Shown: positions 25,005-46,723, counted from the stretch's first letter. The stretch: 64,000 nucleotides of DNA from Methanosarcina sp. (GCF_035390745.1 NZ_DAOOUJ010000004.1:1375-65374); one strand, 5' to 3'. Notes: generated from the letters alone by a model not told the origin. Made by a program: numbers and translations.

Positions 25005-25028
25005 CGTTATGTTCAAATATACATTTCT
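25005..25028. promoter_or_regulatory. Putative ModE box upstream of tupA
   Basis: CGTTATGT-tcaaatat-ACATTTCT; same spacing as the perfect box at 35571. Confidence 0.7.
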
Positions 25029-25056
25029 AACAAAATACTATTTTATGGAGAAGAGT

Positions 25057-26004
25057 ATGAGAAGAGTATTTTTTATTTTGATAATTCTGCTTAGCGTGTT
25101 CCTTGCAATAGGATGCACAGGTACCGAACAGCAACTAAATACTACTACAACGCAACCGAATACCACAGAGACTACGGAACCGGATACTGCCACAACCTCA
25201 CAATCAGACGCGTCAAAACTAATAGTTTCTACTACAACCAGTTTAGAAGATACAGGGCTTTTGGAAGAGATAGAGGCAGCATTTGAAGAAAAATATCCTG
25301 GAGTAGACGTGCTGGTTATATCCGGAGGTACAGGCATAGCCTTACAATACGGTGAAAGAGGAGATGCTGATGTTCTTCTTACTCATGACAAAAGCCGGGA
25401 AGAAGAATTTGTAAGTAATGGATTCGGTACAAACCGTACGGAAATAGCATATAATTATTTCTGGATAGTGGGGCCTGAAAATGATCCCGCAGGAATAGAA
25501 GACCTTAACGCTACAGAGGCATTTAGCAAGATAATGGAAGAGGGTCAAAACAATTCCGATCAGGTTAAATTTGCATCCCGCGGAGACGACTCTGGTACAC
25601 ATGCAAGGGAGAAAAAAATCTGGGAAAGTACTGGTGTAAGTTATGGTGAAGTTAACAGTTCGGGCGAGTGGTACATTGAAAGCGGCAGAGGTATGGGAGA
25701 AACCCTTTTACTTGCCAATGAACAGAATGCTTATACCTTAACTGACTCTGGAACATTCCTTGCATATACTAACGGTGGAAGGATCGAGATTGTACCAATA
25801 GTAACAACGGGCGATGAACTGCTTAATGTTTATGCAGCTATGCCAGTGAATCCAGAAAAACATCCAAATGTTAATTATGAAGGGGCTCAAAACTTCGTAG
25901 ATTTCCTTATTTCTCCTGAAGGGCAGGAAATAATCGGAAACTATGGCAAAGAACAATATGGGCAACCTCTTTTTACTCCTATATCTGAGGGTTTGCCATC
26001 CTGA
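25057..26004 (+). CDS. tupA: Tungstate ABC transporter substrate-binding lipoprotein
   Basis: STTTSLEDTGLL (TTTS signature), FASRGDDSGTH; lipobox LAIGC; ATG 25057 after GGAG. Confidence 0.92.
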   Translation: MRRVFFILIILLSVFLAIGCTGTEQQLNTTTTQPNTTETTEPDTATTSQSDASKLIVSTTTSLEDTGLLEEIEAAFEEKYPGVDVLVISGGTGIALQYGERGDADVLLTHDKSREEEFVSNGFGTNRTEIAYNYFWIVGPENDPAGIEDLNATEAFSKIMEEGQNNSDQVKFASRGDDSGTHAREKKIWESTGVSYGEVNSSGEWYIESGRGMGETLLLANEQNAYTLTDSGTFLAYTNGGRIEIVPIVTTGDELLNVYAAMPVNPEKHPNVNYEGAQNFVDFLISPEGQEIIGNYGKEQYGQPLFTPISEGLPS

Positions 26005-26116
26005 GGATGGATTAAACCCTTAATTATTTTTTAGCCAAAAACTCGAAGAACCTGAAATAAGCGCATAAACTATAAGATCACTAAATTACAAGGTGTATCA
26101 AAGTTCAGGTGGTCGT

Positions 26117-26806
26117 TTGAATGAAATTATCCAGGCAATTTTTCAGGCAATAGAACTAATCATAGAGCTTGATCCCAAATTGATCCAGATAACGAAATTA
26201 AGCCTTTACATTTCGTTAACTGCAACACTCATAGGTTCCTTAATAGCAATTCCCATCGGTGGAATTATCTACTACTATGAATTTTGGGGAAAACGCTCCA
26301 TAATAAATCTCATTCAAACCCTTTACAGCGTTCCTACAGTTCTGGTAGGGCTTTTTCTTTTCCTGCTGATTTCCCAGCAGGGCCCTTTCGGGTTTTTAAA
26401 ACTTCTTTTTACCCCCACCGGAATGATAATAGGGCAGATACTGCTGATACTGCCTCTTCTTATCGGATTTACTATCACTGCTCTTGTCGGGGTCAGCACC
26501 CAGATAAAAGAATTGGCGATATCTCTGGGAGCCAGCACTTATCAAACCATAATCACCATCATAAAGGAAGCTCGTTATGCTATAATGGGCACTGTTATAC
26601 TTGGTTTTGGAAGGGCCATCTCAGAAGTGGGAGTTGCTATACTTATTGGGGGCAATATCAGAGGTTTTACAAGAACATTTACAACTGCCATATCCCTTGA
26701 AACTTCCAGAGGTAATCTGGTACTTTCAATAGCATTAGGATTTATACTTCTTTCTCTTTCTCTAATTATCAATTTACTATTGAATTATCTGCAGGGTAAA
26801 GATTAA
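26117..26806 (+). CDS. tupB: Tungstate ABC transporter permease
   Basis: FGRAISEVGVAILIGGNIRGFTRTFTTAISLE; TTG start after GGTG. Confidence 0.92.
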   Translation: MNEIIQAIFQAIELIIELDPKLIQITKLSLYISLTATLIGSLIAIPIGGIIYYYEFWGKRSIINLIQTLYSVPTVLVGLFLFLLISQQGPFGFLKLLFTPTGMIIGQILLILPLLIGFTITALVGVSTQIKELAISLGASTYQTIITIIKEARYAIMGTVILGFGRAISEVGVAILIGGNIRGFTRTFTTAISLETSRGNLVLSIALGFILLSLSLIINLLLNYLQGKD

Positions 26807-26868
26807 TTGTATCCTCTTCAAATTGAGTGGAAAGCTTTCTTCAATAAAAAGTTAGCTCAGGTTTAACG

Positions 26869-27930
26869 ATGCACATAGTAGAATTGGAAGAAATTTACAA
26901 AAATTATGGAAATCTCCAGGTTCTAAAGAATATTAACCTGCAAATAGAAAAGGGAACCAGCACTGCTCTTGCTGGACCGACCGGCTCTGGAAAAACTGTT
27001 ATGCTCAGATTAATTGATTTACTGGAAAAGCCGTCCTCCGGAACTGTATATTTTGAAGGTGCCGATGCTAATGAATCCAGTAAAACCCGGCTGAATATAA
27101 GAAGGCAAATTGGAATGGTTTTCCAGAAGCCTCTTGCTTTTAAAGCAAGCGTTTATGACAATATTGCCTATGGTTTGAAAGTGAGGGGAATAAAAGAGAA
27201 TATGGACGGGAGGATTAAAGAACTCCTTGAGCTGATTGGACTTCCAGGTTACGAGAATAGAAATGCTCTTAAATTATCTGGGGGGGAAACTCAAAGGCTT
27301 GCACTTGCACGGGCAATGATTACGGATCCTGAGCTGCTATTGCTGGATGAACCAACTGCAAATCTTGATCCTATCTCTAAAAAGAAACTGGAAGAACTGA
27401 TCCTGAAAATTAATCGCGAATCCGAGACAACCGTGATAATGACCACTCATGACCTTTTACAGGGCCAGAAGCTTGCAGACAGGATGGTTTTACTTTATAA
27501 TGGCCAGATCCTGCAGTCCGGAACGCCTGATCAGATATTTAGAAAACCGAAAAACAGATTTGTGGCTGATTTTGTTGGCATTGAAAATATAATGAGCGGC
27601 AGTATTGAGAGCAGTTCAAACGGTTTAGCAAAGATAAAAACAGGTTCCATAACTGTATTTGCCGTAACGGAAAAAGAAGGTGAAGTTCATTTTTCTATCA
27701 GGCCTGATGAAATAACAATATCCAGGGAAAAGGTACAGACCAGTGCCAGAAATACAATTCAGGGTAAAGTTAATGAAATAATCGACACCGGATCACTAAT
27801 AAAGCTGTTAGTGGACACCGGTGAATTGTTCACCGTTTTTATAACTCGCGAGTCCCTTAATGAACTCAATATTTCTATCGGAACCAGTATCTGGTTATAT
27901 TTTAAAGCGTCTGCTGTTCATGTATTTTAA
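26869..27930 (+). CDS. tupC: Tungstate ABC transporter ATPase with C-terminal TOBE domains
   Basis: GPTGSGKT, LSGGETQR, LLLLDEPT; TSARNTIQGKV TOBE. Confidence 0.9.
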   Translation: MHIVELEEIYKNYGNLQVLKNINLQIEKGTSTALAGPTGSGKTVMLRLIDLLEKPSSGTVYFEGADANESSKTRLNIRRQIGMVFQKPLAFKASVYDNIAYGLKVRGIKENMDGRIKELLELIGLPGYENRNALKLSGGETQRLALARAMITDPELLLLDEPTANLDPISKKKLEELILKINRESETTVIMTTHDLLQGQKLADRMVLLYNGQILQSGTPDQIFRKPKNRFVADFVGIENIMSGSIESSSNGLAKIKTGSITVFAVTEKEGEVHFSIRPDEITISREKVQTSARNTIQGKVNEIIDTGSLIKLLVDTGELFTVFITRESLNELNISIGTSIWLYFKASAVHVF

Positions 27931-28014
27931 ATCATAATTGATTGACTTGATTTTCAGGATAATTTGTATTTGCTTAACTGCCTGTTAAGATCCTGGAAAA
28001 TCTCTCCAGCGATC

Positions 28015-28776
28015 TTAATTTTCTCCGCAGATCAAATGGTAATTGTAGTTATAGGCTATCCGTTTCCTGAACGGCATTTTCTTTTTCTGAAGTTCCATAA
28101 TATCTTTCAGGTCCAGGTCTTTGATATTTTTGAATCCTGCAGCCCTGAAGTATTCAAGCATTTTTTCTGGGGGGACTCCATGCCTGTTGGGAAGTTCGCT
28201 ATCGATCTCTCTGGAATAATGGCCTTTTCTGGGGTTCCTTCTTTCAACAAGCAGAGTGAAGAAATCACTTACAAGCCTTCTTATTTTTGTTTCGAATGAA
28301 CCGTCATTCCAGACCCCGTCAACAACAATAAGCTTTCCTCCTTTCCTGAGCACCTTTTTCCAGTTCATGACCGCAGTATCGGGATGCGGGAGAGTCCAGA
28401 GGAGGTGGCGGTTAACAACTATATCAAATGACCTTGCCTCAAAAGGAGGAGCTTCAGCGTCTCCTTTTTTGAAAACACTGTTAAATCCTCTTCTGGAAGC
28501 TTTTTCCCTGGCTTTTGCAAGCATTTTTTCCGAAAGGTCAAGGCCTGTGACATGGTGTCCCATTTCAGCAAATAACAGCCCTATTTCGCATGTCCCGCAG
28601 CCCACGTCAAGCACTTTCAGCCTGCCCGGAGGGAGAAGATTTTTAAATACATTTTTCCAGGCTTCTCTTTCAGCTTCACTCTGAATCCCGTGCCCCTCAT
28701 GGCTGTCATAGGTTTCGGACGAGATATCCCATATGCGGGCAATAGTCTGTTTGATCTGGTTTTCCTGAATGGTCAT
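28015..28776 (-). CDS. Class I SAM-dependent methyltransferase
   Basis: VLDVGCGT, GDAEAPPF, RHLLWTLPHP. Confidence 0.93.
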   Translation of the reverse strand: MTIQENQIKQTIARIWDISSETYDSHEGHGIQSEAEREAWKNVFKNLLPPGRLKVLDVGCGTCEIGLLFAEMGHHVTGLDLSEKMLAKAREKASRRGFNSVFKKGDAEAPPFEARSFDIVVNRHLLWTLPHPDTAVMNWKKVLRKGGKLIVVDGVWNDGSFETKIRRLVSDFFTLLVERRNPRKGHYSREIDSELPNRHGVPPEKMLEYFRAAGFKNIKDLDLKDIMELQKKKMPFRKRIAYNYNYHLICGEN

Positions 28777-29480
28777 ATTTTTATTCCTCTGTTTATGTTT
28801 TCAATTGAGGTAATGGTCCCGTTTTCGAGGTAGGCGATCCTGTGGCAGACTTTCCTTAACACCTCAAGGTCATGGGATATCAGCAGGTAAGAAACGCCTG
28901 TTTCCCTCTGTAATTTCTGCATAAGGCGCAGGATCTGTGCCTGTACTGAAACATCAAGCATGGAAGTTGGCTCGTCAGCGACTATAAAATCCGGAGATAA
29001 AGCCATGATTCTTGCGAGCACTATCCTCTGGATCTCGCCTCCGCTGAGCTGGCCGGGATAGCGGGAAAGGTGTTCCGGGAGCAGGCCTGTAAGTTCTGCC
29101 AGTTCCTCTCCTCTCATCATGAGGTCATCGTGTTCAAGCCCGGAATGAAGTTTCAAAGGTTCGATAAGGTTTTCAAAGGCTTTCATGCGGGGGTCAAGGG
29201 AAGTCTCAGGGTGCTGAAAAATCATCTGGATTTTAGGGCGAAGTTTCCGAAACTCTTTTTTTCCCATGCTCAGGATATCCGCCCCCCTGACCAGGATTTC
29301 TCCTCCTGTTGGTCTTTCAAGCCCTACAATACATCTACCAATAGTGGTTTTTCCCGACCCACTTTTTCCGAAAAGCCCCAGGGTCTCTCCGCGGTCTACT
29401 GAGAAGCTGACGTTTCTGAACACCTCTGTAGTTCCGAACCTCATTGCCAGTCCGTTTACCACAAGGACCGGAAGTGGCAC
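28773..29480 (-). CDS. Peptide/nickel ABC transporter ATPase (DppF-like)
   Basis: GKSGSGKT, IQMIFQHPETSLDP, LSGGEIQR, ADEPTSMLD. Confidence 0.93.
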   Translation of the reverse strand: MPLPVLVVNGLAMRFGTTEVFRNVSFSVDRGETLGLFGKSGSGKTTIGRCIVGLERPTGGEILVRGADILSMGKKEFRKLRPKIQMIFQHPETSLDPRMKAFENLIEPLKLHSGLEHDDLMMRGEELAELTGLLPEHLSRYPGQLSGGEIQRIVLARIMALSPDFIVADEPTSMLDVSVQAQILRLMQKLQRETGVSYLLISHDLEVLRKVCHRIAYLENGTITSIENINRGIKI

Positions 29481-30397
29481 CTTACCAGACCTCCTCTGTG
29501 ATTTTTCATTTCAGGGTGTTTTCTTGAACACTCAATATTTGAGTACCTGCACCTTTCATGGAAAAAACAGCCGTCAGGAAGACTTATCCTGCTAGGGCTC
29601 TGTCCGCTAAGAGGTACAAGCCCGTTTCGAGGCTGAGCCCGGACAAGACCTTTTGTATAAGGGTGAAGAGGCATGCTCAGGACTTTTGAAGCCCCGTCCA
29701 GCTCCACAATCTCTCCTGCATACATCACTGCTATGCGGTCGCATACCTCAAGAGCCAGGTCAAGGTCGTGGGTAATCAGGAGCATTGTCTTTCCGTACTC
29801 TTTTTTTATTCTGGTGAATAGGTCAACTGCACCTGCCTTCGCTTCAGGGTCAAGACCCTTTGTTGGTTCGTCCGCAATCAGAATTTCGGGTTCAAAGGAA
29901 AGGGACATGCAGGCAATCAGCCGCTGCCTCATGCCTCCGGAAAGCTGGTGAGGATAGAGGCTGCAAAGTCTTTCGGGATCTCTCAAAAAGAGCTGTTTCA
30001 TAAGTTTCAGGGCTTTTCTCATTCCTTCTTTTTTTTCTGCCCTGGTTCCCTCAAACACTTCCTCCATTTGAATCCTGTTTTTCAGGACAGGGTTAAGGGC
30101 TCCTGCAGGGTTCTGGGGCATGAGGGAGATTTGTTTGCCCCGGATTTTCCGAAGTTCTGAAGGTTTAAGGGAAAGAATGTCCTGCCCCTGAAAAAGTATT
30201 TCTCCGGAAACCTTTGCATTTGCCTGAAGAAGCCTGAGCACGGCGAGTCCTATTACTGACTTTCCAGATCCGCTTTCCCCTATTATGCCGAAGGTCTCTC
30301 CCTCTTTTACCTCAAAAGAGACGTGAGAAACTGCTTTTACGGTATTTTCTCCTGCGGGGAACTCAATGGAGAGGTCTCTTATTTCAAGCAGGCTCAA
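29456..30397 (-). CDS. Peptide/nickel ABC transporter ATPase (DppD-like)
   Basis: GESGSGKS, YPHQLSGGMRQR, HPYTKGL, C-terminal Cys motif GCFFHERC. Confidence 0.93.
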   Translation of the reverse strand: MSLLEIRDLSIEFPAGENTVKAVSHVSFEVKEGETFGIIGESGSGKSVIGLAVLRLLQANAKVSGEILFQGQDILSLKPSELRKIRGKQISLMPQNPAGALNPVLKNRIQMEEVFEGTRAEKKEGMRKALKLMKQLFLRDPERLCSLYPHQLSGGMRQRLIACMSLSFEPEILIADEPTKGLDPEAKAGAVDLFTRIKKEYGKTMLLITHDLDLALEVCDRIAVMYAGEIVELDGASKVLSMPLHPYTKGLVRAQPRNGLVPLSGQSPSRISLPDGCFFHERCRYSNIECSRKHPEMKNHRGGLVRCHFRSLW

Positions 30398-31296: not shown

Positions 31297-31300
31297 AGTA

Positions 31301-32242: not shown

Positions 32243-32327
32243 GTTTCCTCCTCTAAATGGACAGAAGGCAGGATTGCCTATCTATCCAGTGTTACTCCTG
32301 GTGAAGGGAAATTCAAAAGGAAATTTA

Positions 32328-34860: not shown

Positions 34861-35478
34861 TAATTGTAATTATTATCTTTTTTTGTAACATTAAGTTCCA
34901 GTGTTATTATTTTTGTGATTACAAAAACGATACTGTTATCTACGGATGTCTTATCTGGTACACGGTTGAAAATTAGAAGCTTCTCTTTTTCGAGGGGTTT
35001 TACGCCATGAAAGCTTGTTTCAGATGGCTAAACTTCTTCACGCTAATTTTTCTTTGTATCGTTTTTATGCGATCATAACATGGCAGGTTGAACTCGGGTC
35101 TGGGCACAGGATAGAAATTCCTGAAGATTTCAGACAGGCTGCCCGGAACACTAACATATTTTGTTTCCCAGGGACAAGCGGGATTTTGTTAAAAAAGTTC
35201 TCATTATTCTCTGTTTTTAAAGGAAAATCTCTTTTTGATCGATAATTTTATAAAATACCTGTTTATATATTTTGAGCGCGAAAGCCCTGTCTTCCGCTTT
35301 TATAGATATGTTGAGCTTTACATATCTGGAAGTTGTAGAGTTCTGGCTGGTGTTTTTTTCTGTGTCCGGCCGATTACGTGGGACTCTGTCCTTTATGTTG
35401 AAACTTCGCCCCAACCCATATTACAAATATAAATAAGTCCTGTAAAAAAGTTACCTATAAATACAGTGTATCCTTCTG

Positions 35479-35502
35479 CGTTATGTTGGAATTTACATAA
35501 TT
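35479..35502. promoter_or_regulatory. Putative ModE box 1 upstream of fmdE
   Basis: CGTTATGT-tggaattt-ACATAATT. Confidence 0.75.
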
Positions 35503-35570: not shown

Positions 35571-35594
35571 CGTTATGTTTATTTGAACATAACG
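35571..35594. promoter_or_regulatory. Putative ModE box 2 upstream of fmdE
   Basis: Perfect CGTTATGT-ttatttga-ACATAACG palindrome. Confidence 0.85.
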
Positions 35595-35651
35595 GTGAAA
35601 CCCACGGTGGTGTACACATTGCATAAGAATTCAGATCAAGAGAAACACAAC

Positions 35652-36221
35652 ATGGAAGCGATCCTGAAGCAGGTAAAGGACCCTGAGTTGCTTTCACAGA
35701 TTGAAAAGGTCGTCCCCTTTCACGGCTTCCTTACCTCAGGGGCATTAATTGGCATTCAGATGCTCAATATTGCACGAAGGGAGCTTAATGTCCGGGAAGG
35801 GGAGCGCATATACGTGACCTGCGAAACAAAAAGCTGCATGCCCGACCCCTTCCAGATCCTCTCCGGAGCCACAATCGGGAACGGCGGGTTGAAGATCAAT
35901 AACTTTGGGAAAATGGCGGTCACGGTAAACAAACAGGCACCTGAAGGAGTGAACGGCATAAAAGGTATCAGGATCTACCTTGATCCTGAAAAAACGAAAG
36001 ACTATCCCAAACTCCATGCTTGGTACCTTAACACTGAAAAGTTTCACCATGAAGAAATTGTGCCTATCCTTCTGGAAGCCGGGGAAAAGGTGTATTCCTG
36101 GAAATTTATGGACCTGGAAGTTCCGGTTAGAATGAAAAAGCGGATACAGTGCTGCGAAAAATGCGGTGAAATGTTCATTCAACACGATAATGAGCTGCTG
36201 TGCGGCGGATGCACAGAATAA
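35652..36221 (+). CDS. fmdE: Formylmethanofuran dehydrogenase subunit E
   Basis: FHGFLTSGALIG, CETKSCMPDPFQ, C-terminal CEKC..CGGC Zn finger; the TTG 35583 start of the ORF track lies inside the operator. Confidence 0.9.
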   Translation: MEAILKQVKDPELLSQIEKVVPFHGFLTSGALIGIQMLNIARRELNVREGERIYVTCETKSCMPDPFQILSGATIGNGGLKINNFGKMAVTVNKQAPEGVNGIKGIRIYLDPEKTKDYPKLHAWYLNTEKFHHEEIVPILLEAGEKVYSWKFMDLEVPVRMKKRIQCCEKCGEMFIQHDNELLCGGCTE

Positions 36222-36239
36222 CGTTGAGAGGTAAATAAA

Positions 36240-37280
36240 ATGCAAGATGAGATGCGATTGTCAGTCTTTTCCGAGAAAAAAGACCGGCAGCTGGTCTATA
36301 AGCCTGAAAAATGTATTGGCTGTGGGACCTGCGTACAGGCATGCCCCAAAGGCACCCTTTCTATAGGTGCCGTGGGAGCTGTAGCTAGAGGGTTACTGGA
36401 TGCTGATTTTCTTGAAATGGCAAAAAGTGAAGAGTGCCTTGTCTGTGGGATCTGTGCAAAAGTCTGCCCCACAGGCGCTCTTGAATTGAAGCAGGAAGGA
36501 AAACCCCTCACAGACATGTCCTATATCTCAAAGGCAGTGAGGCCAACGTCAGTAACCGAAAGCTGCGTCCACTGCGGTCTCTGTGAGGATATCTGCCCCC
36601 AGGGCTGTATTGAGGTTACCCGGAAAATTTCAGCAGACGGAAAACTGAAGCTGGTCGGAAAGACCCATATTGATACCGAGTGCTGCGTCCACTGCGGCTG
36701 GTGTGCTGCAGTATGTCCTGTAAACGCTATTTCCGTGGAAAAGCCCTTTGAAGGGCGCTGGACCAGGGCTGAAGATGTCTGCCAGACCTGCCACACATGT
36801 ATTGATGTCTGTCCTGCAAATGCCCTTTTCAATAAAAAAGCAAAATCCGGAGAAAGGGTTGAAAAGATAACACACCGGCCTGACGCCTGCATTTACTGCG
36901 GAGCCTGTGCGGTTGCCTGTCCTGTGGATGCCATTGATGTCCGAAAAACTGCAATTCTTCCGGAAATGGAGAAAAAGGGTGTCCTCGAGAAAAAGCTGAT
37001 TGAAGCTCCTGTCCCTGCCGCCGCGCTTCGCACCCGCATCGAAAAGGATGAATATGCTTGCCTTGGCTGCGGAAACTGTGTGATCGTCTGTCCGGTAAAC
37101 GCTCTCGATAACCGCGAACTTGCTGCCGGCTACCTGTACGAAATGGATGAAAAAGCTATCCTTGAAGTCAGAAACGGGAAAGTTTCGGTCGTAAACCAGG
37201 AACGCTGCGGAGGGGATGGGACCTGCGCCCTTATCTGCCCTGTAAATGCGGTCTGGCTTGTGAAAAAAGAGGTGGAATAA
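36240..37280 (+). CDS. fmdF: Formylmethanofuran dehydrogenase polyferredoxin subunit F
   Basis: Eight CxxCxxCxxxCP-type motifs (last is CGGDGTC). Confidence 0.95.
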   Translation: MQDEMRLSVFSEKKDRQLVYKPEKCIGCGTCVQACPKGTLSIGAVGAVARGLLDADFLEMAKSEECLVCGICAKVCPTGALELKQEGKPLTDMSYISKAVRPTSVTESCVHCGLCEDICPQGCIEVTRKISADGKLKLVGKTHIDTECCVHCGWCAAVCPVNAISVEKPFEGRWTRAEDVCQTCHTCIDVCPANALFNKKAKSGERVEKITHRPDACIYCGACAVACPVDAIDVRKTAILPEMEKKGVLEKKLIEAPVPAAALRTRIEKDEYACLGCGNCVIVCPVNALDNRELAAGYLYEMDEKAILEVRNGKVSVVNQERCGGDGTCALICPVNAVWLVKKEVE

Positions 37281-39035
37281 ATGGCAGGAACAATTGCAAT
37301 CAAGAACGGATACGTCTTTGATCCCCTCAACGAGATAAATGGGGAGAAAATGGACATCTTCATCAGGGGCGGGAAAGTAGTAAAAGAGCTTTCTGCAGCC
37401 GAAATGAAAACGTCAAAAGTTATCGATGCCTCAGGAATGACCGTTATGCCCGGAGGGGTTGACTCCCACTCCCACGTTGCAGGTGCAAAGGTTAATGCCG
37501 GCAGGTCGATGCGCCCTGAAGACCACTATAAAGCAAATCTTAAGAAAACTGCGCTCACCCATTCAGGTTCAGGATATACCGTCCCCTCTGTTTACAAACA
37601 GGGATACGATTACGCAGCAATGGGCTACACAACGGTTTTTGAAGCTGCGGTTCCTCCTCTCGAAGCCCGGCACACCCATGAAGAAATGTGTGCAACTCCG
37701 CTTCTTGATATGGGCGGTTACCTTGTTCTCGGAAACAACTTTTTCCTGATGCGCTACCTCCGGAACGGCGACATGGAAAAGGCGGCTGCTTATGTTGCCT
37801 GGATGATGAAGACCCACAAGACCTACGGGATCAAATGTGTCAACCCCGCGGGAGTTGAAAACTGGGCATGGGGCAAGAACATACATTCTCTTGACGAAAC
37901 CAACATCCACTTCGAGGTCACCCCAAGAGAGATCATCAAAGGGCTTACTGAAATCAACGAAACCCTCGGCATGCCGATGCCCCTCCATCTGCATGCAAAC
38001 AACCTGGGACACCCTGGCTGCTATGCAATTACCAAGGATTCCCTCAAAATCCCTGATGGGGTAAAGACAAAACAGAACATGGATGTCGAATGGGCGGAAA
38101 CCAAAATGGACCCTTCAAGGGACCGTTCCGTATACCTCACTCACATGATGTTCAACAGTTTTGCAGGCACAACATGGGCAGACTGCGAATCCGGTGTTAA
38201 GGATATTACAGACTACATAAACAACAGGGACCATGTGGTAATCGACAGCGGATGCACTCCTTTCGGAGAAGCGACAGTCATGACAGGAGACGGACCTGCC
38301 ATCCACGATATTTATGCCCTTACAGGAAACAAATGGTCGAACACTGACGTTGAAATGGAATGCGGCTCAGGCGTCATTCCATTTACCTACCTCAAGTCCA
38401 ATCCTGTTCACAGCCTGCAATGGGCAATGGGTCTTGAATGTCTCCTGCTTATAAATGACCCCTGGAAGACAATCATGACCACAGACAGTCCCAACGGCGG
38501 GCCGTTTACTAAATATCCTGAGGTTATGACCTGGATCATGTCCGAGGCTTTCAGGAAGCAGACTTTTAGCGAGTGCCACAAGTGGGCAAATGACAGGAGT
38601 GCACTCGGTGGCGTAAACCGTGAGCTATCCCTCTATGACCTTGCGATCCTTACCAGAGCCAACCCTGCAAAGACAATCGGTATGGTTCACAGAAAAGGTT
38701 CTCTCGGTGTGGGTGCGGATGGAGACGTTACAGTCTACAACATAAACCCGCAGCAGCTTGACGCAAACAATTATGAAGCTCTTCTCAGGGCTTTCAGGAA
38801 GGCAGAATACACCGTAAAGGGCGGCGAAATCGTTGCTGTAAAGGGAGAGATTGTTTCCCTGCCCGAGAAGCGGACTTACTATTCCGAAGTGCATGTTGAA
38901 AACGAGCGGGAAAAAGAGATGCTGGCTGACGTGAAGGAGTGGTTCAGGTACTATACTCTTGGTTTTGCCAACTACCCTACTCCGGAGAAATATCTGGAAA
39001 ACCCAACTCCCATACAGGTTAACGGTGAGAGGTGA
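37281..39035 (+). CDS. fmdA: Formylmethanofuran dehydrogenase subunit A
   Basis: PGGVDSHSHVAG amidohydrolase; LHLHANNLG; TTDSPNGGPF. Confidence 0.97.
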   Translation: MAGTIAIKNGYVFDPLNEINGEKMDIFIRGGKVVKELSAAEMKTSKVIDASGMTVMPGGVDSHSHVAGAKVNAGRSMRPEDHYKANLKKTALTHSGSGYTVPSVYKQGYDYAAMGYTTVFEAAVPPLEARHTHEEMCATPLLDMGGYLVLGNNFFLMRYLRNGDMEKAAAYVAWMMKTHKTYGIKCVNPAGVENWAWGKNIHSLDETNIHFEVTPREIIKGLTEINETLGMPMPLHLHANNLGHPGCYAITKDSLKIPDGVKTKQNMDVEWAETKMDPSRDRSVYLTHMMFNSFAGTTWADCESGVKDITDYINNRDHVVIDSGCTPFGEATVMTGDGPAIHDIYALTGNKWSNTDVEMECGSGVIPFTYLKSNPVHSLQWAMGLECLLLINDPWKTIMTTDSPNGGPFTKYPEVMTWIMSEAFRKQTFSECHKWANDRSALGGVNRELSLYDLAILTRANPAKTIGMVHRKGSLGVGADGDVTVYNINPQQLDANNYEALLRAFRKAEYTVKGGEIVAVKGEIVSLPEKRTYYSEVHVENEREKEMLADVKEWFRYYTLGFANYPTPEKYLENPTPIQVNGER

Positions 39036-39039
39036 AGTC

Positions 39040-39906
39040 ATGACAGAGGGAGTACTTATTCATAAAAAAACTGAAACCGGAAAAAGTGCCGGAGAAATGG
39101 AAGAAGTAACGCTTATTCCTAAAAAAGCGATTGACATTAAACTGGAAGCAGATGTTATAACTCCTGATTCCTTTGCAGGCAAAAGTGCCGCAGAAATAGG
39201 GATGCTGTCCGTCTGGCAGGGCCCAAAGACCTATCCCCTTTCCGATTTCTTTGAAGTGGTAGGCAAAGCAGGCAGTTCTGCAGCCGAGACCCTGATACGC
39301 ATAAAAGGCGATGCGATGAGGATCAAAAGGATCGGAGAAGGCATGAGTGCAGGAAAAATTGAAATCGAAGGTTCTGCAGGCATGCATGTCGGGACAGGAA
39401 TGAAGGGAGGAGAAATCGTCGTTTACGGAGATGCTGATTCCTGGGCTGGCATGGAAATGCTTGGCGGGCTCCTGCACATTAAAGGCAATGCAGGTGACCA
39501 TGTGGGCTGTGCTTACAGAGGAAAGTGGCACGGCATGAAAGGCGGACGCATAGTTATCGAAGGCTCTGCAAGGCACCAGCTTGGAGGCGGCATGGACGGC
39601 GGCGAAATTCTAGTGGAAGGAAACGTTGAAGGTTTCTGCGGGATCCGTCAGAACGGCGGGCTCATCGTTGTAAATGGTAGAGCTCTCCGTGGAGTGGGCG
39701 CAGAAATGGCAGGCGGAACCATAGTTATCGGGGGTAAAATTGAACGCTTCTCCCCTGGTTTCGAATATGTGTCCATGGAAAATAAGGTCACTTCGGGTGA
39801 GATTGAGCTGATAGGCGACTTCAAGAAATTCACAGGGGACTATGCGATCAGCAAGAGGGCAAAAGGAGCTCTCTATGTATCTATAAACGCAAACCCGGAG
39901 CTCTGA
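39040..39906 (+). CDS. fmdC: Formylmethanofuran dehydrogenase subunit C
   Basis: GXGXG beta-helix repeats; ATG 39040 after GAGGTG. Confidence 0.95.
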   Translation: MTEGVLIHKKTETGKSAGEMEEVTLIPKKAIDIKLEADVITPDSFAGKSAAEIGMLSVWQGPKTYPLSDFFEVVGKAGSSAAETLIRIKGDAMRIKRIGEGMSAGKIEIEGSAGMHVGTGMKGGEIVVYGDADSWAGMEMLGGLLHIKGNAGDHVGCAYRGKWHGMKGGRIVIEGSARHQLGGGMDGGEILVEGNVEGFCGIRQNGGLIVVNGRALRGVGAEMAGGTIVIGGKIERFSPGFEYVSMENKVTSGEIELIGDFKKFTGDYAISKRAKGALYVSINANPEL

Positions 39907-39916
39907 GGTGAGAAGC

Positions 39917-40306
39917 ATGGAAGTAATACTCATTACCGGAAGTACGATTGATGAAGGCAGGCTTGCCAAAGGCGGAGACAAATTCACGGATGATTACACT
40001 ATGGAGTGTGCGTCCTGCTGGATTTCCCCTGTAGATTTTGTATCTCTCTGCTCCCCTGAGAAGGTAAAAGTAACAAGCAGGAACGGGAAACATTCGATTG
40101 TCGTTTATTCTAAATGCACTGATTCTGTCCAGCCAGGGCAGGTGTTCATGCCGAGGGCTATCTGGTCGAATGTTATCATCGATCCTGATACCCTTTCTAC
40201 GGGCTCTCCTCTCTATAAGGGTGCTCCCGTATATGTCGAACCCTCAGATGAAGATGTTCTCAGCGCCGAAGATGTAGTATTGAAAGTTTATATCGGAGGG
40301 CAGTAA
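39917..40306 (+). CDS. fmdD: Formylmethanofuran dehydrogenase subunit D
   Basis: EVILITGSTIDEG, GQVFMPRAIW, TGSPLYKG. Confidence 0.95.
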   Translation: MEVILITGSTIDEGRLAKGGDKFTDDYTMECASCWISPVDFVSLCSPEKVKVTSRNGKHSIVVYSKCTDSVQPGQVFMPRAIWSNVIIDPDTLSTGSPLYKGAPVYVEPSDEDVLSAEDVVLKVYIGGQ

Positions 40307-40308
40307 GC

Positions 40309-41610
40309 ATGATTTACAAAAACATAGTCTGTCCGGTCTGCGGGGCATCCTGTGATGATATCCAGGTTGAGTTCGGAGACGGAAAGATCGAAGCCAGAAA
40401 TGCATGTAAAATGGGGAACGCCAAGTTCAAGGAGGTTGTAAGTTCCCACAGGCTCAGGCAGCCCCTTATAAAGGCTGGCGGAAAACTGACCCCTGCAGCC
40501 TGGGACGAAGCCCTTGAAAGAGCTGCCGATATCCTTGTTTCGGCAAAGCGTCCTCTCCTTTTTATGGGCAGTGAAACCTCATGCGAAGCGCATGAAGTAG
40601 GGCTCAAAATAGGGGAATACCTTGGCGCAATTGTTGACTCCAACGCTACCATCTGCCACGGGCCAACTGCAATGGGAATCCAGGAATCAGGAAAAGTCGG
40701 TGCAACCGAAGGTCAGAAGAAAAACAGAGGTGACCTTATTGTTTACTGGGGAACCAACCCTCTTGAATCCATGCCAAGGCAAATGTCAAGGTATGGAGTT
40801 TTCCCGAGAGGCTACTGGACCAAGCGCGGGCGTTTTGACAGGACAGTTATTACTGTGGACCCGAGAAAAACCCCTACAACCGAAGCTTCCGATCTGCACG
40901 TACAGCTCAAACCCGGTTCGGATTATGAACTGATAAGTGCACTTCTCACCCTGCTTCACGGGAAAGTTCCCCACCCTTCAGTAGAAGAGATCACAGGAGT
41001 TCCCATCCCTGTCATGGAAGAGATGCTCGATATGATGAAGAACTGCAACTTCGGTGCCATTTCAGTTGGGCTCGGCCTTTCTTCGTCCATAGGAAAGCAC
41101 AGGAACGCCGAAATTGCCATGAACCTGGTAAAGGAGCTGAACAATTATGCCAAGTTCACCCTCGGAGCTCTAAGAGGCCACTGTAATGTTGCAGGCTTTA
41201 ACCAGGTCGCTTCTTACATGTACGGCTACCCGTTCGGGCTTGATTTCACCCGCGGGCACCCGCGTTACAACCCCGGGGAATACACAACCGTTGACGTGCT
41301 GAGGGAAAAAGATGTGGATGCAGCTCTTGTGATGTGCGCTGACCTTGTCTGCCATATCCCTGCGGACTGTGCTTCTTATCTTGCAGAAATCCCGATGGTC
41401 TGCCTGGACATTGCTCCCTGCCCGACCACAGCGGCTTCGGATATCGTGCTTCCGGGAGTCATTGACGCCATGGAATGTGACGGAACTTTCTACAGGCTCG
41501 ATGACGTGGCAGTGCACTTCGAACCTTTCACAAGCTCGCCTTTCGAGTTTACGAAGAGCAACGAAGACACCCTGAAGCAGCTCTTTGAGAAGATTAAGGC
41601 AAGAAAGTAG
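40309..41610 (+). CDS. fmdB: Formylmethanofuran dehydrogenase subunit B (metallopterin catalytic subunit)
   Basis: CPVCGASCDD Fe-S motif; ATICHGPT catalytic Cys; LRGHCNVAG. Confidence 0.97.
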   Translation: MIYKNIVCPVCGASCDDIQVEFGDGKIEARNACKMGNAKFKEVVSSHRLRQPLIKAGGKLTPAAWDEALERAADILVSAKRPLLFMGSETSCEAHEVGLKIGEYLGAIVDSNATICHGPTAMGIQESGKVGATEGQKKNRGDLIVYWGTNPLESMPRQMSRYGVFPRGYWTKRGRFDRTVITVDPRKTPTTEASDLHVQLKPGSDYELISALLTLLHGKVPHPSVEEITGVPIPVMEEMLDMMKNCNFGAISVGLGLSSSIGKHRNAEIAMNLVKELNNYAKFTLGALRGHCNVAGFNQVASYMYGYPFGLDFTRGHPRYNPGEYTTVDVLREKDVDAALVMCADLVCHIPADCASYLAEIPMVCLDIAPCPTTAASDIVLPGVIDAMECDGTFYRLDDVAVHFEPFTSSPFEFTKSNEDTLKQLFEKIKARK

Positions 41611-41877: not shown

Positions 41878-42633
41878 ATGGGAAAAATGTCACAGGATAA
41901 TAAAAACGATAAATCTTACTACGTTATCATTGCTCTGTCAATTGTTCTGGTGCTGATGTCGGCAACGATATACGCCATTTCACAGAGCGGGTCCGAAAAG
42001 GGTGCGGAAAATACTATTTCCATGAGTGGGTATGCTGAACAGAAAGTTGTCCCCGACACTGCAACATTGAACATAGGTGTTGTAGTTCAGTCTGAAACTG
42101 CAAAGGAAGCGTCCGATAAAAATGCAGCCCTTATGAGCGCTGTAATGGCAGAACTCAAAGCAATCGGACTGCAGGACAGGGAAATAAAGACATCCTATGT
42201 TTCCGTGTACCCGGTATACAGCTATGCGAATGATACGCAAACAATCACAGGTTACTCTGCATCCAACAGCGTGCAGATCACAACCACAAAACTCGACAAG
42301 CTGAGTGAGATCATTGACAGGTCCACAGCCGCCGGAGCTAATGAGATTGGAAGCATTTCCTTCTCAGTATCTGATGAAAAGCAAAAACAGCTTAGTGAAG
42401 ACCTGATGAATGAAGCAGTAGCAGATGCATCATCAAAAGCCAATGCGCTTGCTAAGAGCCTGGGTGTTAAGATAACTGGCGTGCAGACCTCATCTGTAAG
42501 TGAAAGCAGCGGCTCCAGAGTATATTACGATATGGCAATGGAAGAAAAGGCTACAGGAGCAGCTTCCACTCCTATCCAGCCAGGCGAGTCTACCGTTTCA
42601 ATGTCAGTACAGGTAACGTACTACATTGAATAA
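41878..42633 (+). CDS. SIMPL (DUF541) domain protein
   Basis: N-terminal TM; KVVPDTATLNIGV; AKSLGVKITGV; IQPGESTVSMSVQVTY. Confidence 0.9.
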   Translation: MGKMSQDNKNDKSYYVIIALSIVLVLMSATIYAISQSGSEKGAENTISMSGYAEQKVVPDTATLNIGVVVQSETAKEASDKNAALMSAVMAELKAIGLQDREIKTSYVSVYPVYSYANDTQTITGYSASNSVQITTTKLDKLSEIIDRSTAAGANEIGSISFSVSDEKQKQLSEDLMNEAVADASSKANALAKSLGVKITGVQTSSVSESSGSRVYYDMAMEEKATGAASTPIQPGESTVSMSVQVTYYIE

Positions 42634-42731
42634 GAAATTAGGATTAAGTAATTTGAACACTGAGGTAACAAATGATCAGGGGCTGCAGATGACAAATGTT
42701 GTTTGCAGCCTCTCAGATCATTCTTTTTCTA

Positions 42732-43739
42732 TCAATCAGTTCCCTTATGAGTTGTTTTGTATAAGGTTTTCGCGATTGAATATTTTTTACTCTCCAGGGT
42801 TACACTATAATATGGAATTAGCTCAGGAGAAAAGCCCATAATAAAATCCACAAATGCAGGAACATTTGCTGCCATTACATTCATGTATTCGAAGTTTCGG
42901 GACTTCAGGTCAAGAAATTCATTATGATACAGAAGAGCAATGGGGCTCAGATGAGCAAAATCCGGGTTCAGGGCTGAGGTCCAGATTACAGCGCATTTTT
43001 TTCCGTATAGATTTAAGTGAGCTGCAACAGCTTCACCTTCAGGGGTCTCTGAGATAAACATGTATCCAGTGTTTTTTTCCTGAATCAGCTTAAATACTCT
43101 ATCATAGAATTCCCTGGGAAGGGGAGGCTCCAAATTCTGTTTTTCATGGGCCAGTGAAAGCAGACTGTAATATGTTTCAGGGTCATTCAATACCCTGGTT
43201 TTAAGCCCTGCCTCAGTTGCAGTTTTAAGTTCTGTCTTTCTTTCCGTTGAAAGCTTGCTGTCTATGTTTTCTTTCAGGTTCAGATAATGGGTGTAATGCA
43301 CGGAGGAATCCCATCCATTCCATGTAAACGGTCTTATATCCTCAAATCCTGGAGCAAATGTTAGATGAATGCTGTCAAATCCCTGCTTGCAGAGAAATTC
43401 CCTGAGCGGATTGAGGATTTCGTGAGTTTCCTGTACCCTTTTAGATGCTCTGGAACTGGCACTTTCTTTTATAAGAGGCCCACTGTAGCTTGTCATTCTA
43501 CAGTTTGAACTTGCCACTTCCAATATTCCCTTTATATTTTTAACAAAAAGGGGGCATCCTCCCACAAGCTCTCCTTTTCTGAAGCAGCCGTAGATTTTCA
43601 GATCTTTTGACAGGGCATCCCTGCAAATTTCGAGCCAGTCACTTGTATGAAAGAGCGTACCGGGTTGAGCTTTTTCTACAAGCAAATCCCATTCTTTGTA
43701 TTCAGACGGCAGTAATTCTCTGACTTCAATTTCTTCCAT
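42732..43739 (-). CDS. GNAT/FemAB-like acyltransferase
   Basis: EWDLLVEKAQPGTLFHTSDWL N-terminus; two-GNAT architecture. Confidence 0.82.
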   Translation of the reverse strand: MEEIEVRELLPSEYKEWDLLVEKAQPGTLFHTSDWLEICRDALSKDLKIYGCFRKGELVGGCPLFVKNIKGILEVASSNCRMTSYSGPLIKESASSRASKRVQETHEILNPLREFLCKQGFDSIHLTFAPGFEDIRPFTWNGWDSSVHYTHYLNLKENIDSKLSTERKTELKTATEAGLKTRVLNDPETYYSLLSLAHEKQNLEPPLPREFYDRVFKLIQEKNTGYMFISETPEGEAVAAHLNLYGKKCAVIWTSALNPDFAHLSPIALLYHNEFLDLKSRNFEYMNVMAANVPAFVDFIMGFSPELIPYYSVTLESKKYSIAKTLYKTTHKGTD

Positions 43740-43813
43740 TTTAAGCTCCTTAAACTTCCATTTTAAGTTCCATAAGAAAGCGGGTTTGATTCGGAAGCCG
43801 CCCGAACAGTCGT

Positions 43814-44614
43814 TTAACTTCGAAATATTATTGCATGGTATTTGTATTCATAATACATTGATTGTACGCAAATCATTTCAAAACCATTTTTATTTGCAAT
43901 TTTTTTAATTTTATTGGGATAATGTGAATACCCCAGAATGTCTCTTGGGCGTCTTTTCAAGCTTGCTGATATTGAGTTTTTAATCCCGCAAACCACTTTG
44001 CTTACTATTTTCCGGCAGCTTTTATCCTGTGAAAACAGCCCCATTTTCCATAAGGGGTATAGGCGAGGGTCCAGCATGTCAAATAATACTATTTTACCCC
44101 CTTCATTAAGATATTTTGATGCATTGAAAAGAAAATCATCAATTTCCTGATATGTCAGGTACTGAAATACTCCGGCTGCAGTTATTCGGTCGAAGGAAGA
44201 GTCCAGCTTGTCCCAGACAGTTTTGTCGTCAGCCAGAATTAAAGTTGTATTTTCACAATTTCTTTCCTTTATTCTTTTGCTTGCTTCCTCAAGCATTGAT
44301 GGGGAAAAGTCAACTCCTATAGTTTTTTCATATTCTGGCGCATAGTATACCAGAAGTTCTCCGGCTCCGCATCCAAAGTCAAGAATGGTTTTCCCGCCGT
44401 CCAGATGGAATAGTTTTTCCCTTGCTTCCATAGCAAGAAATTCTTCAGCTGATGATCTGTGCCCTCCCCTTCTCTTATCTGCAAAAAACTCTTCCCATAC
44501 GTTTTTTGGCTTTAATACCTTTTTTTCATATTCTTCTGAAACGTTTTGTTCATATCCGGCAGACCTGTTTTTTTCATAAATTCCAGACACTTTTTTTTCA
44601 TGCCCCACAGACAT
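43814..44614 (-). CDS. Class I SAM-dependent methyltransferase
   Basis: ILDFGCGAGELL, GVDFSPSML, FDRITAAGVFQY. Confidence 0.9.
   Translation of the reverse strand: MSVGHEKKVSGIYEKNRSAGYEQNVSEEYEKKVLKPKNVWEEFFADKRRGGHRSSAEEFLAMEAREKLFHLDGGKTILDFGCGAGELLVYYAPEYEKTIGVDFSPSMLEEASKRIKERNCENTTLILADDKTVWDKLDSSFDRITAAGVFQYLTYQEIDDFLFNASKYLNEGGKIVLFDMLDPRLYPLWKMGLFSQDKSCRKIVSKVVCGIKNSISASLKRRPRDILGYSHYPNKIKKIANKNGFEMICVQSMYYEYKYHAIIFRS
44507..44602 (-). repeat. Imperfect 24-nt tandem repeat x4 at the methyltransferase N-terminus
   Basis: HEKKVSGI/YEKNRSAG/YEQNVSEE/YEKKVLKP; each unit starts YATGAAMAAAA. Confidence 0.7.
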
Positions 44615-45120
44615 ATTTTCTTTAAACCCCCAGATATTGCCTTTTTCGATACGCCTCTCTATGCAATCTGAAATTAACTATACAATCCGGTTTGTTACAG
44701 CATCCGGTTTGTTACATTATCAAGTTCTCTCAGTTATTTTCCCCAAAATAACCCAAAACCGTAAAAATGTACTGAAGAGTTCTATTTTTATCGATATATA
44801 TAAATTTCTCTGGCGGCTGAAACTTCTTCAAATTTGTTTTTTAATATTCATTACTTCCCGGTTATGTCTTTCTTTCTGTTCATAAATATGAATCTCTTCC
44901 CAATTTATTCTAAACATGAATCCCTATGGTTTCAAAAATGTGTATCCTTTGAGTCATAGTTTCTCGTTTCAAGCGAATAAAGTATAAAATTAGAAAATTT
45001 AAAAAGTATTTTATGCTCTGCCAATGTCTTATGTAAGGAAATTTCGCAGTTGAGCTCTAATGTATAGTTTAGCTTGATGTATAGTTAAATTTATGAAATA
45101 ACTAATAAGGTCTGATCTGA

Positions 45121-46140
45121 ATGCTTAAAAGAAGGTATATTGGCAAATGGCTGATGCTTATCTTTTCTGTTTCTGTTTTTTTGTGTGTTTCTGCAAGTGC
45201 AGATGATAACGAATCGAAAGGCACTGATTATGATGACATCTCCAATTCTGTAAAGGATTTTGCAAATGATCCCTCGTTTATAGCTTTCAGAGGAACCATA
45301 CCAGAAACGGTTGATCAGGAGTGGAAAAATTCAATTACAGATTGCTGGCTAAATCTTAACAAAATAGGGTCTTCATACTCTGAATTTGACAAGTCTATAA
45401 AAAGTGTTGCAGTCGGTCATGTAATAATAATTGAACTGGGCTCTGCCTATAAAGGAGAAGTAGACAACTCCAGAATTGACGAGATGTATCAGAAAATTGA
45501 GAATTACTGTGAAGAGCAGGAAGGGGTAAGTGAAATTCCTGTGGTCTTTATGTGGGCTCTGGATGAGGAGGACCTTCCATTGCCGGACTACGGACCTCAG
45601 ATTTTTGAAGAAGCTAAGAAGAATCCATTGTTCGTAGCTGCTCGAGGAACAATGCCTGTAATTACAGATTCCAGTGAAAAAGCGGAATGGACAGATTCAC
45701 TTGTTCAGTGTAGTCGGTCACTTTCTAGCCCTTCTAAAGCGGATACAGGAATTAACCCGTATTTTGCTTCATCCGGTGGCCCTGTGAGCACCTTCGGAAC
45801 CGACATTAATGGATATTTAGCAGTGGGTTTCGAGGGATACAGTTCCGAAAAAGTAAATGAATCATTAATTGACGAGATATATAAGGTAATAGATGAACAA
45901 TGTGAGCAGGAAGGCATCAGTGATGTACCGGTGGTTTTTGAGTTTGAAGGCTACGAGGTTGAAGAAGTAGAACTTTTACCGGAAGATGAGATCCCAAATG
46001 TGAGTGAAAGTGATGATTCCAGCTTATCAGGTAATGAAGAAGAGACTGCTGGTAATAAGATGATCAATCAAACACCCGGCTTTACTTCAATAATGACTAT
46101 TCTAGGGCTTTTATCGTTGCTGACAATCAAGCGTTCATAA
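45121..46140 (+). CDS. Secreted two-repeat protein with PGF-CTERM-like sorting signal
   Basis: Signal peptide; repeats FIAFRGTIP..IPVVFMW and FVAARGTMP..VPVVFEF; TPGF + TM + KRS tail. Confidence 0.82.
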   Translation: MLKRRYIGKWLMLIFSVSVFLCVSASADDNESKGTDYDDISNSVKDFANDPSFIAFRGTIPETVDQEWKNSITDCWLNLNKIGSSYSEFDKSIKSVAVGHVIIIELGSAYKGEVDNSRIDEMYQKIENYCEEQEGVSEIPVVFMWALDEEDLPLPDYGPQIFEEAKKNPLFVAARGTMPVITDSSEKAEWTDSLVQCSRSLSSPSKADTGINPYFASSGGPVSTFGTDINGYLAVGFEGYSSEKVNESLIDEIYKVIDEQCEQEGISDVPVVFEFEGYEVEEVELLPEDEIPNVSESDDSSLSGNEEETAGNKMINQTPGFTSIMTILGLLSLLTIKRS

Positions 46141-46224
46141 CGTTTTTTAAGCCCTGTTTTGCCAGCTTTTTTAGATTTCTTCTGGATTTTTTGCTTTTTT
46201 TCTCCAGCATAATTATTTTTCTTT

Positions 46225-46671
46225 TTACTCTCTTTTTCTGAAAGCCACTTTTTCCCCGCAGTACTGGTGCAGTTTCTTAGTGCCTCCAGCCTCGCTGACC
46301 ACCGTAAGCATTGTTAAGGGATCAATAATTCTGGTCCCCATTATTGCAGTAATACCTCTACTGAAGAACGGGGCAGGGTAAAGAGGCGCGCTTGGACCCA
46401 GCAGGACAACTTCCCCTGCTGCACCCCGGAATGAAATAAGTTCGTCAAAAGTCCGGTTGGCGAGGGTACTTGCACTGAGAATAATCACATCCGACGCGGG
46501 GATAATCTCTTTTGCTTTTTCCGATGGGATAATCGTGGTTTGAGGTGATTCTATTTCACGCTTTTCAAGGACAGTAAGTTTATCTGTAATTTTCAGGATT
46601 TTCGGAACGAGAGGCCCGAAATAGCCTACCATTGCAACCCTGTCTTCTGGTTTTATAAGGTCAATTTTCAC
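46225..46671 (-). pseudogene. DUF364-like Rossmann domain, apparently N-terminally truncated
   Basis: VAMVGYFGP, SDVIILSASTLANRTFDELI, VVLLGPSAPL; 148 aa, weak GTG start, no RBS. Confidence 0.6.
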
Positions 46672-46699
46672 TCAAAAATCTCTTAAGATAGAATTTCAA

Positions 46700-46723
46700 T
46701 GATATGTCTGAACACACATAACG
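46700..46723. promoter_or_regulatory. Putative ModE box upstream of the DUF364-like gene
   Basis: TGATATGT-ctgaacac-ACATAACG (14/16 match). Confidence 0.7.

Follow-up and report, generated by a model that had tools for sequence, protein, structure and literature searches.

A single palindrome with an identical 8-bp spacer recurs four times in a 64,000-nucleotide stretch of Methanosarcina sp. DNA (GCF_035390745.1 NZ_DAOOUJ010000004.1:1375-65374; the whole stretch is referred to here as the window): ahead of a tupA-like transporter gene, twice ahead of the fmd operon for the molybdenum-type formylmethanofuran dehydrogenase, and ahead of a DUF364-like gene. This raises the question of whether these boxes are operators for a ModE-type regulator encoded in the same window, and what regulation they would impose on the molybdenum (Mo) and tungsten (W) genes beside them. 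Our analysis makes it very probable that the boxes are operators for the ModE encoded at 14391-14978, and that they belong to the same regulon as that of the sister species Methanosarcina acetivorans. Both the regulon and its motif are already known from that organism and are not new; the window is an orthologous instance in another species.

The ModE protein and its boxes

The regulator and the four boxes considered here are as follows.

14391..14978, plus strand: modE, 195 aa, a winged helix-turn-helix (HTH) regulator with a single Mop/TOBE domain
25005..25028 (core 25006-25027, GTTATGTTCAAATATACATTTC), plus strand: ModE box 1, before tupA, with a perfect left half and 2 mismatches in the right half
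35479..35502 (core 35480-35501, GTTATGTTGGAATTTACATAAT), plus strand: distal fmd ModE box, orthologue of the published M. acetivorans GTTATGTTGAAATCTACATAAT
35571..35594 (core 35572-35593), plus strand: proximal fmd ModE box, a perfect palindrome, orthologue of the published GTTATGTTTATTTAAACATAAC
46700..46723 (minus-strand core GTTATGTGTGTTCAGACATATC), minus strand: probable relic ModE operator of a lost modABC-modD-DUF364 operon

Allowing up to three mismatches to CGTTATGT-N8-ACATAACG, a pattern search of the window returns exactly four matches, at 25005 (3 mismatches), 35479 (2), 35571 (0) and 46700 (2), which are the four palindromes described in the first-pass annotation of this DNA. When the window is dinucleotide-shuffled, 0.07 matches are found on average, and not one of 100 shuffles has as many as four. 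When compared with the published 22-nt ModE motif, RTTATGT-N8-RCATAAY, which has 14 specified positions, the cores at 35480 and 35572 show no mismatch, the core at 46701 shows one, and the core at 25006 shows two, both of which fall in the right half (ACATTTC).

This motif has been studied in M. acetivorans (Chanderban & Lessner 2025, PMC12327845), where CRISPR interference provides evidence that ModE represses vnf and anf in vivo. Recombinant M. acetivorans ModE requires RTTATGT-N8-RCATAAY to shift DNA in electrophoretic mobility shift assays (EMSA), mutation of the motif abolishes binding, and the anfH, vnf, ma1200 and ma1234 promoters were all bound in these assays. That paper traces the first prediction of the motif to Studholme & Pau in 2003; the first-pass annotation likewise mentions an earlier prediction of ModE-like sites in Methanosarcina. 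Table 1 of PMC12327845 includes two boxes before fmd (ma0304-0309) and one before the 'molybdate ABC transporter ma0325-0323' (ABC, ATP-binding cassette), and by blastn synteny both of the fmd boxes and the 46700 box in the window are orthologues of three published M. acetivorans sites (362669, 362751 and 383712).

The identification of the 14391-14978 product as ModE is borne out by its domain content and by its 87% identity to M. acetivorans ModE. It matches Pfam TOBE (57.9 bits) and HTH_1 (28.8 bits) and the NCBIfam Mop and ModE_repress domains, and a search of the PDB returns ModE N-terminal domains as well as Mop proteins, with the N-terminal winged HTH (residues 17-107) matching 2ijl at E=6e-12 and 1o7l at E=7e-6. 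The HTH is of the ModE type, with TIGR00637 scoring 61 bits, below its cut-off of 98.5. The two tandem Mop domains of the E. coli-type ModE (NF007957 / PRK10676) are not present in this protein, which has one Mop/TOBE domain at residues 111-176.

The genome-wide scan proposed in the first-pass annotation was performed with a position weight matrix (PWM) built from 12 published M. acetivorans sites only, made symmetric, and applied to the whole 3.375 Mb genome. The four boxes of the window rank second, third, sixth and seventh (C, L and G numbers are our handles for contigs, loci and genomes).

Rank 1, score 32.9: C6:80269, beside an orphan fmdB gene
Rank 2, score 32.1: proximal fmd box
Rank 3, score 23.0: distal fmd box
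Rank 4, score 21.0: C6:82964, 29 nt ahead of a ModA-type modABC operon
Rank 5, score 18.6: C83:9569, upstream of fwdDBA
Rank 6, score 17.7: 46700 box
Rank 7, score 17.6: tupA box

All of these seven matches are intergenic and adjoin Mo/W genes, and matches that score under about 15 mingle with coding sequence. Seven matches score at least 17, compared with 1 for a backwards matrix, 1.4 for local shuffles and 0.7 for a third-order Markov simulation; the last gave one odd maximum, and the other two controls are of the same order of magnitude. The two boxes that score about 17.6 are not significant by score alone; it is their position and orthology that carry them. The M. acetivorans genome has 15 exact copies of the motif and none of its backwards control. 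Comparison of 13 to 30 species shows constant half-sites and variable spacers. The boxes combine a position at Mo/W promoters with conservation in relatives, and a single-Mop ModE gene is present in the same genome. The genome contains one nif cluster and lacks vnf and anf.

These observations sustain the first-pass proposal of a ModE regulon in so far as the boxes are ModE-type operators that match an EMSA-tested motif; the regulon itself had been described before. The accompanying suggestion that one sensor links the genes is uncertain, as purified M. acetivorans ModE was Mo-free and its DNA binding in vitro was unaffected by Mo (PMC12327845). ModE is treated here as the presumptive metal sensor.

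Promoter geometry at tupA and fmd

Consideration of the sequences around the tupA and fmd boxes gives insight into the regulation that ModE may exert at these genes.

24980..24989, plus strand: TATA-like element TAATAAATAA of the putative tupA promoter, 16 nt upstream of box 1
25057-26004, plus strand: TupA-like binding protein (Pfam PBP_like_2; NCBIfam TupA, 192.7 bits)
26093-26806, plus strand: TupB-like permease (Pfam BPD_transp_1; NCBIfam TupB, 170.5 bits)
26869-27930, plus strand: ABC ATPase with TOBE domain (Pfam ABC_tran and TOBE; NCBIfam WtpC, 341 bits)
35305..35326, plus strand: third, far-upstream fmd box GATATGTTGAGCTTTACATATC, PWM score 12.5, a symmetric variant (GATATGT-N8-ACATATC)
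35456..35463, plus strand: TATA-like element TATAAATA after an A-rich stretch, the putative fmd core promoter (13-species alignment)
35607..41610, plus strand: fmdEFACDB, molybdenum-type formylmethanofuran dehydrogenase (Pfam, NCBIfam, blastn)

The tupA box, the distal fmd box and the two modA boxes are each preceded, at 10-16 nt, by a TATA-like element, and in M. acetivorans the anfH, vnf, ma1200, ma1234 and both modA promoters have one 1-16 nt ahead of the box. The tupA element is kept in 5/5 orthologous promoters. At fmd, the sole TATA-like element that is conserved across species is CTATAAATA, which lies 16 nt upstream of the distal box, a spacing equal to that at tupA; the region just before the proximal box is unconserved in the 13-species alignment, and in many species it is rich in GC. 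This genome has a further TATA ahead of the proximal box (TATCTATATT), which was considered as the main promoter and rejected, as it is not conserved in other species.

Because the TATA-like element is upstream of the box, the tupA, distal fmd and mod boxes are predicted to span the transcription start, where ModE would act as a repressor. We infer from this geometry the TATA and start positions, and the direction of regulation at fmd and tupA. The first-pass annotation had set activation at fmd against repression at tupA; the arrangement of the promoters instead favors repression at both, and so yields a testable prediction of fmd repression, a point left open by the authors of PMC12327845.

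Three transporter-type promoters (window 25028-25057, window 46671-46700 and L001:6987-7015) share one layout, namely a TATA-like element, 10-16 nt, the 22-nt box, exactly 29 nt, and the start codon; in the case of tupA these 29 nt separate box 1 from the ATG at 25057.

The archaeal repressors MDR1, NrpR and Phr bind downstream of the TATA box, while the effects of SurR and TrmBL1 depend on position. We propose that a ModE dimer would bind the inverted repeat GTTATGT-N8-ACATAAC, and that the transporter and distal fmd boxes, located 10-16 nt downstream of a TATA-like element, would cover the likely transcription start. ModE bound at these sites would let TBP and TFB bind and keep RNA polymerase off, which is the usual position for an archaeal repressor. 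With Mo plentiful, ModE would hold down the TupA-like transporter, the remaining modABC operon on another contig, fmdEFACDB and the functionless promoter of the 46700 relic; with Mo scarce, these genes would be released. The transcribed leader would then include the proximal fmd box; the third box is about 175 bp further upstream than the distal one, and both of these additional boxes may add occupancy to repression.

A number of points weigh against this reading. The fmd, ma0325 and ma2280 sites are not among the EMSA targets of PMC12327845, and a literature search found no transcription-start map for Methanosarcina. The right half of the tupA box is poor and its score alone is within the reach of chance; moreover, its conservation rests on close relatives in which the entire promoter is conserved, so that a footprint of the box has little power. 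Finally, one would not intuitively expect a Mo enzyme to be repressed in the presence of Mo, and expression of M. acetivorans fmd1 is high in standard medium, which contains Mo (PMC2838876); the authors of PMC12327845 note the same puzzle for fmd, and leave activation open.

Alternatively, ModE would activate fmdEFACDB when Mo is available and repress the transporters only, with the upstream boxes recruiting the transcription machinery, as E. coli ModE does at moaA, dmsA and napF. Physiological logic speaks for this, since a Mo enzyme is expected when Mo is present, and the abundance of fmd1 transcripts in Mo-containing medium and the explicit retention of this option by the authors of PMC12327845 lend it support; moreover, an activator would typically bind where the third box is located, or at any box that precedes the true TATA. 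We nevertheless consider it unlikely: the only conserved TATA-like element is upstream of the distal box, so that the likely start coincides with or precedes the distal and proximal boxes; this order of TATA and box is that of the ModE-bound promoters in M. acetivorans, among which in vivo repression concerns vnf and anf only; and repression alone has so far been shown for ModE in the genus (PMC12327845). The presence of several boxes could also be explained by DNA looping or by cooperative ModE oligomers that require a fixed helical phase, as would suit the three conserved boxes before fmd, the four boxes in the M. acetivorans vnf-anf intergenic region, and the two shifted bands and high-molecular-weight complexes seen in EMSA with recombinant ModE (PMC12327845). 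This explanation is doubtful, as the centre-to-centre spacing of the proximal and distal fmd boxes is 79, 82, 84, 85, 88, 92 or 118 bp depending on the species; these seven spacings correspond to 7.5 to 11.2 helical turns with no common phase, and argue against phase-dependent looping; the first-pass annotation had suggested looping as one possibility. We give very little credence to the view that these are AT-rich palindromes arisen by chance, or that some regulator other than ModE binds them. Scores near 17 do occur about once per genome by chance, and purified M. acetivorans ModE binds at micromolar concentrations only (PMC12327845), but the enrichment, the Mo/W gene neighborhood, the orthology and the half-site conservation, together with the loss of EMSA binding on mutation of the motif, all favor ModE operators.

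The transporter downstream of box 1 (25057-27930) appears by best match to be a TupA-like relative, with W or Mo as its predicted substrate. Its proteins do not reach the NCBIfam equivalog cut-offs (TupA 192.7/400, TupB 170.5/320, WtpC 341/440), and these are still the best-scoring specific families; the name tupA given in the first-pass annotation is apt for a TupA-like binding protein, and falls short of equivalog status. The cluster is absent from M. acetivorans, and true orthologues are found in 8/58 other Methanosarcina genomes. The four closest of these keep the box GTTATGTTCAAATAYACATTTC, 29-33 nt before the ATG, along with a TATA-like element and a ribosome-binding site, one of the four having a weaker copy of the box; in the four more distant orthologues the box is decayed or absent. 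On this basis it is plausible that the tupA box is a weak operator and a new, lineage-restricted member of the regulon.

The fmd operon is 87% identical at the nucleotide level to M. acetivorans ma0304-0309; its Pfam matches are FmdE, eight copies of Fer4, Amidohydro_3, GXGXG, Molydop_binding and Molybdopterin, and FmdB matches TIGR03129 at 636.9 bits. The tandem pair of boxes described in the first-pass annotation consists of two real boxes, but alignment of 13 species reveals three that are conserved, the one at 35305 having been missed. Its GATATGT-N8-ACATATC palindrome is kept in most of the 13 aligned Methanosarcina fmd upstream regions, and it represents a modest new element beyond the published regulon.

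Candidate start codons for fmdE are GTG 35607/35610, TTG 35619 and ATG 35652. Two Methanosarcina species have CTG or ATA in place of this ATG, and the in-frame stretch upstream of it is conserved; the start may therefore be GTG 35607/35610 or TTG 35619, which lie 13-25 nt past the proximal box. A block with the sequence TCGATAATTTTATAAAATACCTGTTTATATA (window 35230-35275), located about 35-70 nt upstream of the third fmd box, shows strong conservation across the genus, and may be a second upstream fmd promoter or the promoter of the divergent methyltransferase gene.

Traces of lost transporter operons

The 46700 box and the region upstream of modE both bear the marks of deleted transporter genes.

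46662..46671, minus strand: apparent deletion junction, with the modA start codon (GTG AAA A) fused in frame to mid-DUF364
46225..46671, minus strand: 5'-truncated DUF364 gene, 148 aa, the Rossmann-like C-terminal domain alone
14136..14390, plus strand: 3' remnant of a wtpC-like ATPase gene (blastn synteny and window sequence)

The 46700 box is the orthologue of the published ma0325 site, which in M. hadiensis lies 29 nt before modA and is followed by modA, modB, modC (with TOBE), a modD-like gene and DUF364. In alignment, the window reads promoter, box and GTG AAA A, and then at once the middle of DUF364, and there is a blastn break between M. acetivorans 379552 and 383676, with about 4.1 kb missing here. 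The deletion appears to have taken modA past codon 2, modB, modC, modD and the 5' half of DUF364, and to have fused the remainder in frame.

The DUF364 fragment matches Pfam PF04016 only and lacks the N-terminal DUF4213. Its residues 3-148 correspond to residues 130-275 of the 279-aa M. hadiensis orthologue, which has DUF4213, with 88% identity; in nearly all relatives whose copy is complete, the protein has 273-314 aa with an N-terminal DUF4213. The truncation is shared by no other genome among the compared relatives, and is therefore likely to be recent. The crystal structure of a DUF364 protein places the active site at the interface of its two domains, with the N-terminal domain forming half of the cleft (PMC2954201); with this domain gone, the 148-aa fragment is probably inactive.

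We surveyed 32 Methanosarcina loci (L036-L067) for the distance between the box and DUF364. This is about 3.5-4.1 kb, consistent with the full operon, at 16 loci, about 0.9-1.1 kb (modD and DUF364) at 6, and 28-73 nt (DUF364 alone) at 5; no box was found at the other 5/32 loci. The three distance classes imply that the modABC-modD-DUF364 operon has decayed repeatedly in the genus, with its ModE box retained.

The first-pass annotation took the 46700 box to drive a functional, stand-alone DUF364 protein under ModE control. In keeping with this, the 148-aa frame is open and begins 29 nt past the box, and five other Methanosarcina genomes have the box directly before a full-length DUF364. We regard this as quite improbable for the gene in the window, since the gene lacks the N-terminal DUF4213/enolase-like domain that contributes one half of the cleft of the active site (PMC2954201), since the junction joins it cleanly to the start codon of modA, and since an open frame proves nothing when the truncation is found in no other genome and is probably recent. 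What survives of the claim is the DUF364-like match and the reality of ModE control of DUF364 in the genus; the gene seen here is a 148-aa leftover of a deletion, and the box would be the operator of the operon that was lost.

A second loss is apparent next to modE. In M. acetivorans, a near-motif box GTTATATTCAAGAAGACATAAC is followed by open reading frames of 352, 272 and 348 aa, described as related to WtpABC (PMC12327845), and by modE as the fourth gene. By blastn synteny, 3.2 kb (M. acetivorans 336645-339858) is missing from the window, and the 3' end of the ATPase gene survives before modE. A wtpABC-like operon and its own near-motif ModE box thus seem to have been deleted upstream of modE (window 13790-14390). 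These findings suggest a turnover of Mo/W transporters, in which two operons were deleted, one of them leaving its operator behind, and the genome has in their stead a TupA-like system whose box is weak.

Boxes outside the window and comparison with known systems

The fifth-ranked match of the genome scan (C83:9569-9590; L002:4070-4091), with orthologues in L118-L146, belongs to a set of ModE boxes found 470-820 bp upstream of fwdDBAC. Such a box is present in 30/30 Methanosarcina genomes with the operon and in 1/11 without it. Its half-sites are almost invariant and its spacers variable, and in M. acetivorans (974526) it is a perfect match to the motif, but Table 1 of PMC12327845 does not list it. 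A conserved TATA-like element, GGTAATATATAA, directly follows the box on its fwdD-facing side; the fwd box is thus just upstream of its TATA-like element, whereas the fmd and transporter boxes are downstream of theirs. A literature search on ModE and fwdD found nothing relevant, and a search of Rfam with the window and two other loci gave no match, with no known riboswitch, the molybdenum cofactor (Moco) motif included, in the fmd and fwd leaders.

Were the sign of regulation set by position, as in the case of SurR and TrmBL1, a single regulator could switch Fmd and the tungsten-type Fwd reciprocally. ModE would then control both formylmethanofuran dehydrogenase isoenzymes in a position-dependent manner according to metal supply, a proposal that we put forward tentatively and think improbable as it stands. 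If true, it could resolve the puzzle of repressor-like ModE sites on the 'Mo-type' Fmd; the conserved fwd-linked box would in addition extend the published regulon.

A tRNA-Met gene with an intron lies about 160 bp from the fwd-upstream box, on the side opposite to fwdD. This tRNA-Met(CAT) (C83:9748-9859, with a 36-nt intron) was found by ARAGORN only when introns were allowed, and was missed by default ARAGORN and at the Rfam gathering threshold. The box was considered as an operator of the tRNA gene and rejected, as 10/11 fwd-less genomes retain the tRNA and its promoter but have no box; the presence of the box thus tracks fwd rather than the tRNA. Among the genomes with no fwdD match, one (L163, G006:C7) keeps a box, ATTATGTCAGCACTAACATAAT, about 155 nt upstream of tRNA-Met; this box may be a further relic operator that outlasted its operon.

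The best ModE box in the genome (score 32.9; C6:80269-80290, L001:4270-4291) follows an orphan fmdB-like gene (474 aa), 13 nt past its stop codon. The box directly abuts a TATATATA element and is not in the table of PMC12327845; M. acetivorans (1996799) has kept both the box and the downstream sequence TTGAGGATCACAGGAG. Either a small transcript running downstream or an RNA antisense to fmdB could be driven from this site.

The closest known system is the M. acetivorans regulon, which has the same motif, RTTATGT-N8-RCATAAY, the same single-Mop ModE, and orthologous boxes before fmdEFACDB, the ma0325 modABC operon and a ma2280-type modABC operon, the last of which is on another contig here. The two regulons differ in that the nitrogenase half (vnf and anf) is absent here and only nif is present, in that wtpABC and the ma0325 operon, save for its operator, have been lost, and in that a TupA-like transporter with a weak box, absent from M. 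acetivorans, is found. In this nitrogenase-free version of the regulon, the predicted targets of ModE are limited to Mo/W transporters and Fmd/Fwd. The third fmd box and the fwd-upstream box are both missing from Table 1 of PMC12327845.

The association of DUF364 with mod operons has been noted from genome context (PMC2954201; M. maripaludis random-barcode transposon sequencing (RB-TnSeq) preprint, 10.1101/2024.03.05.583561). Consistent with this, DUF364 closes a modABC-type operon in most Methanosarcina; the window differs in having the C-terminal domain only, fused to the modA start codon.

In E. coli, ModE is a winged-HTH dimer that occupies an AT-rich inverted repeat spanning the transcription start of the molybdate transporter operon. 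The Methanosarcina system is alike in its winged HTH, in the inverted repeat at transporter promoters, and in also touching genes for molybdoenzymes. In contrast to the E. coli protein, the Methanosarcina ModE has one Mop domain and 195 aa rather than 262 aa, and binds DNA without Mo in vitro; its half-site is TATGT, and not the TATAT of the E. coli modA operator. Taken together with the putative start positions, the operators at tupA, modA and distal fmd would lie between the TATA box and about +20, as do those of MDR1, NrpR and Phr, although these repressors, like SurR and TrmBL1, belong to protein families unrelated to ModE.

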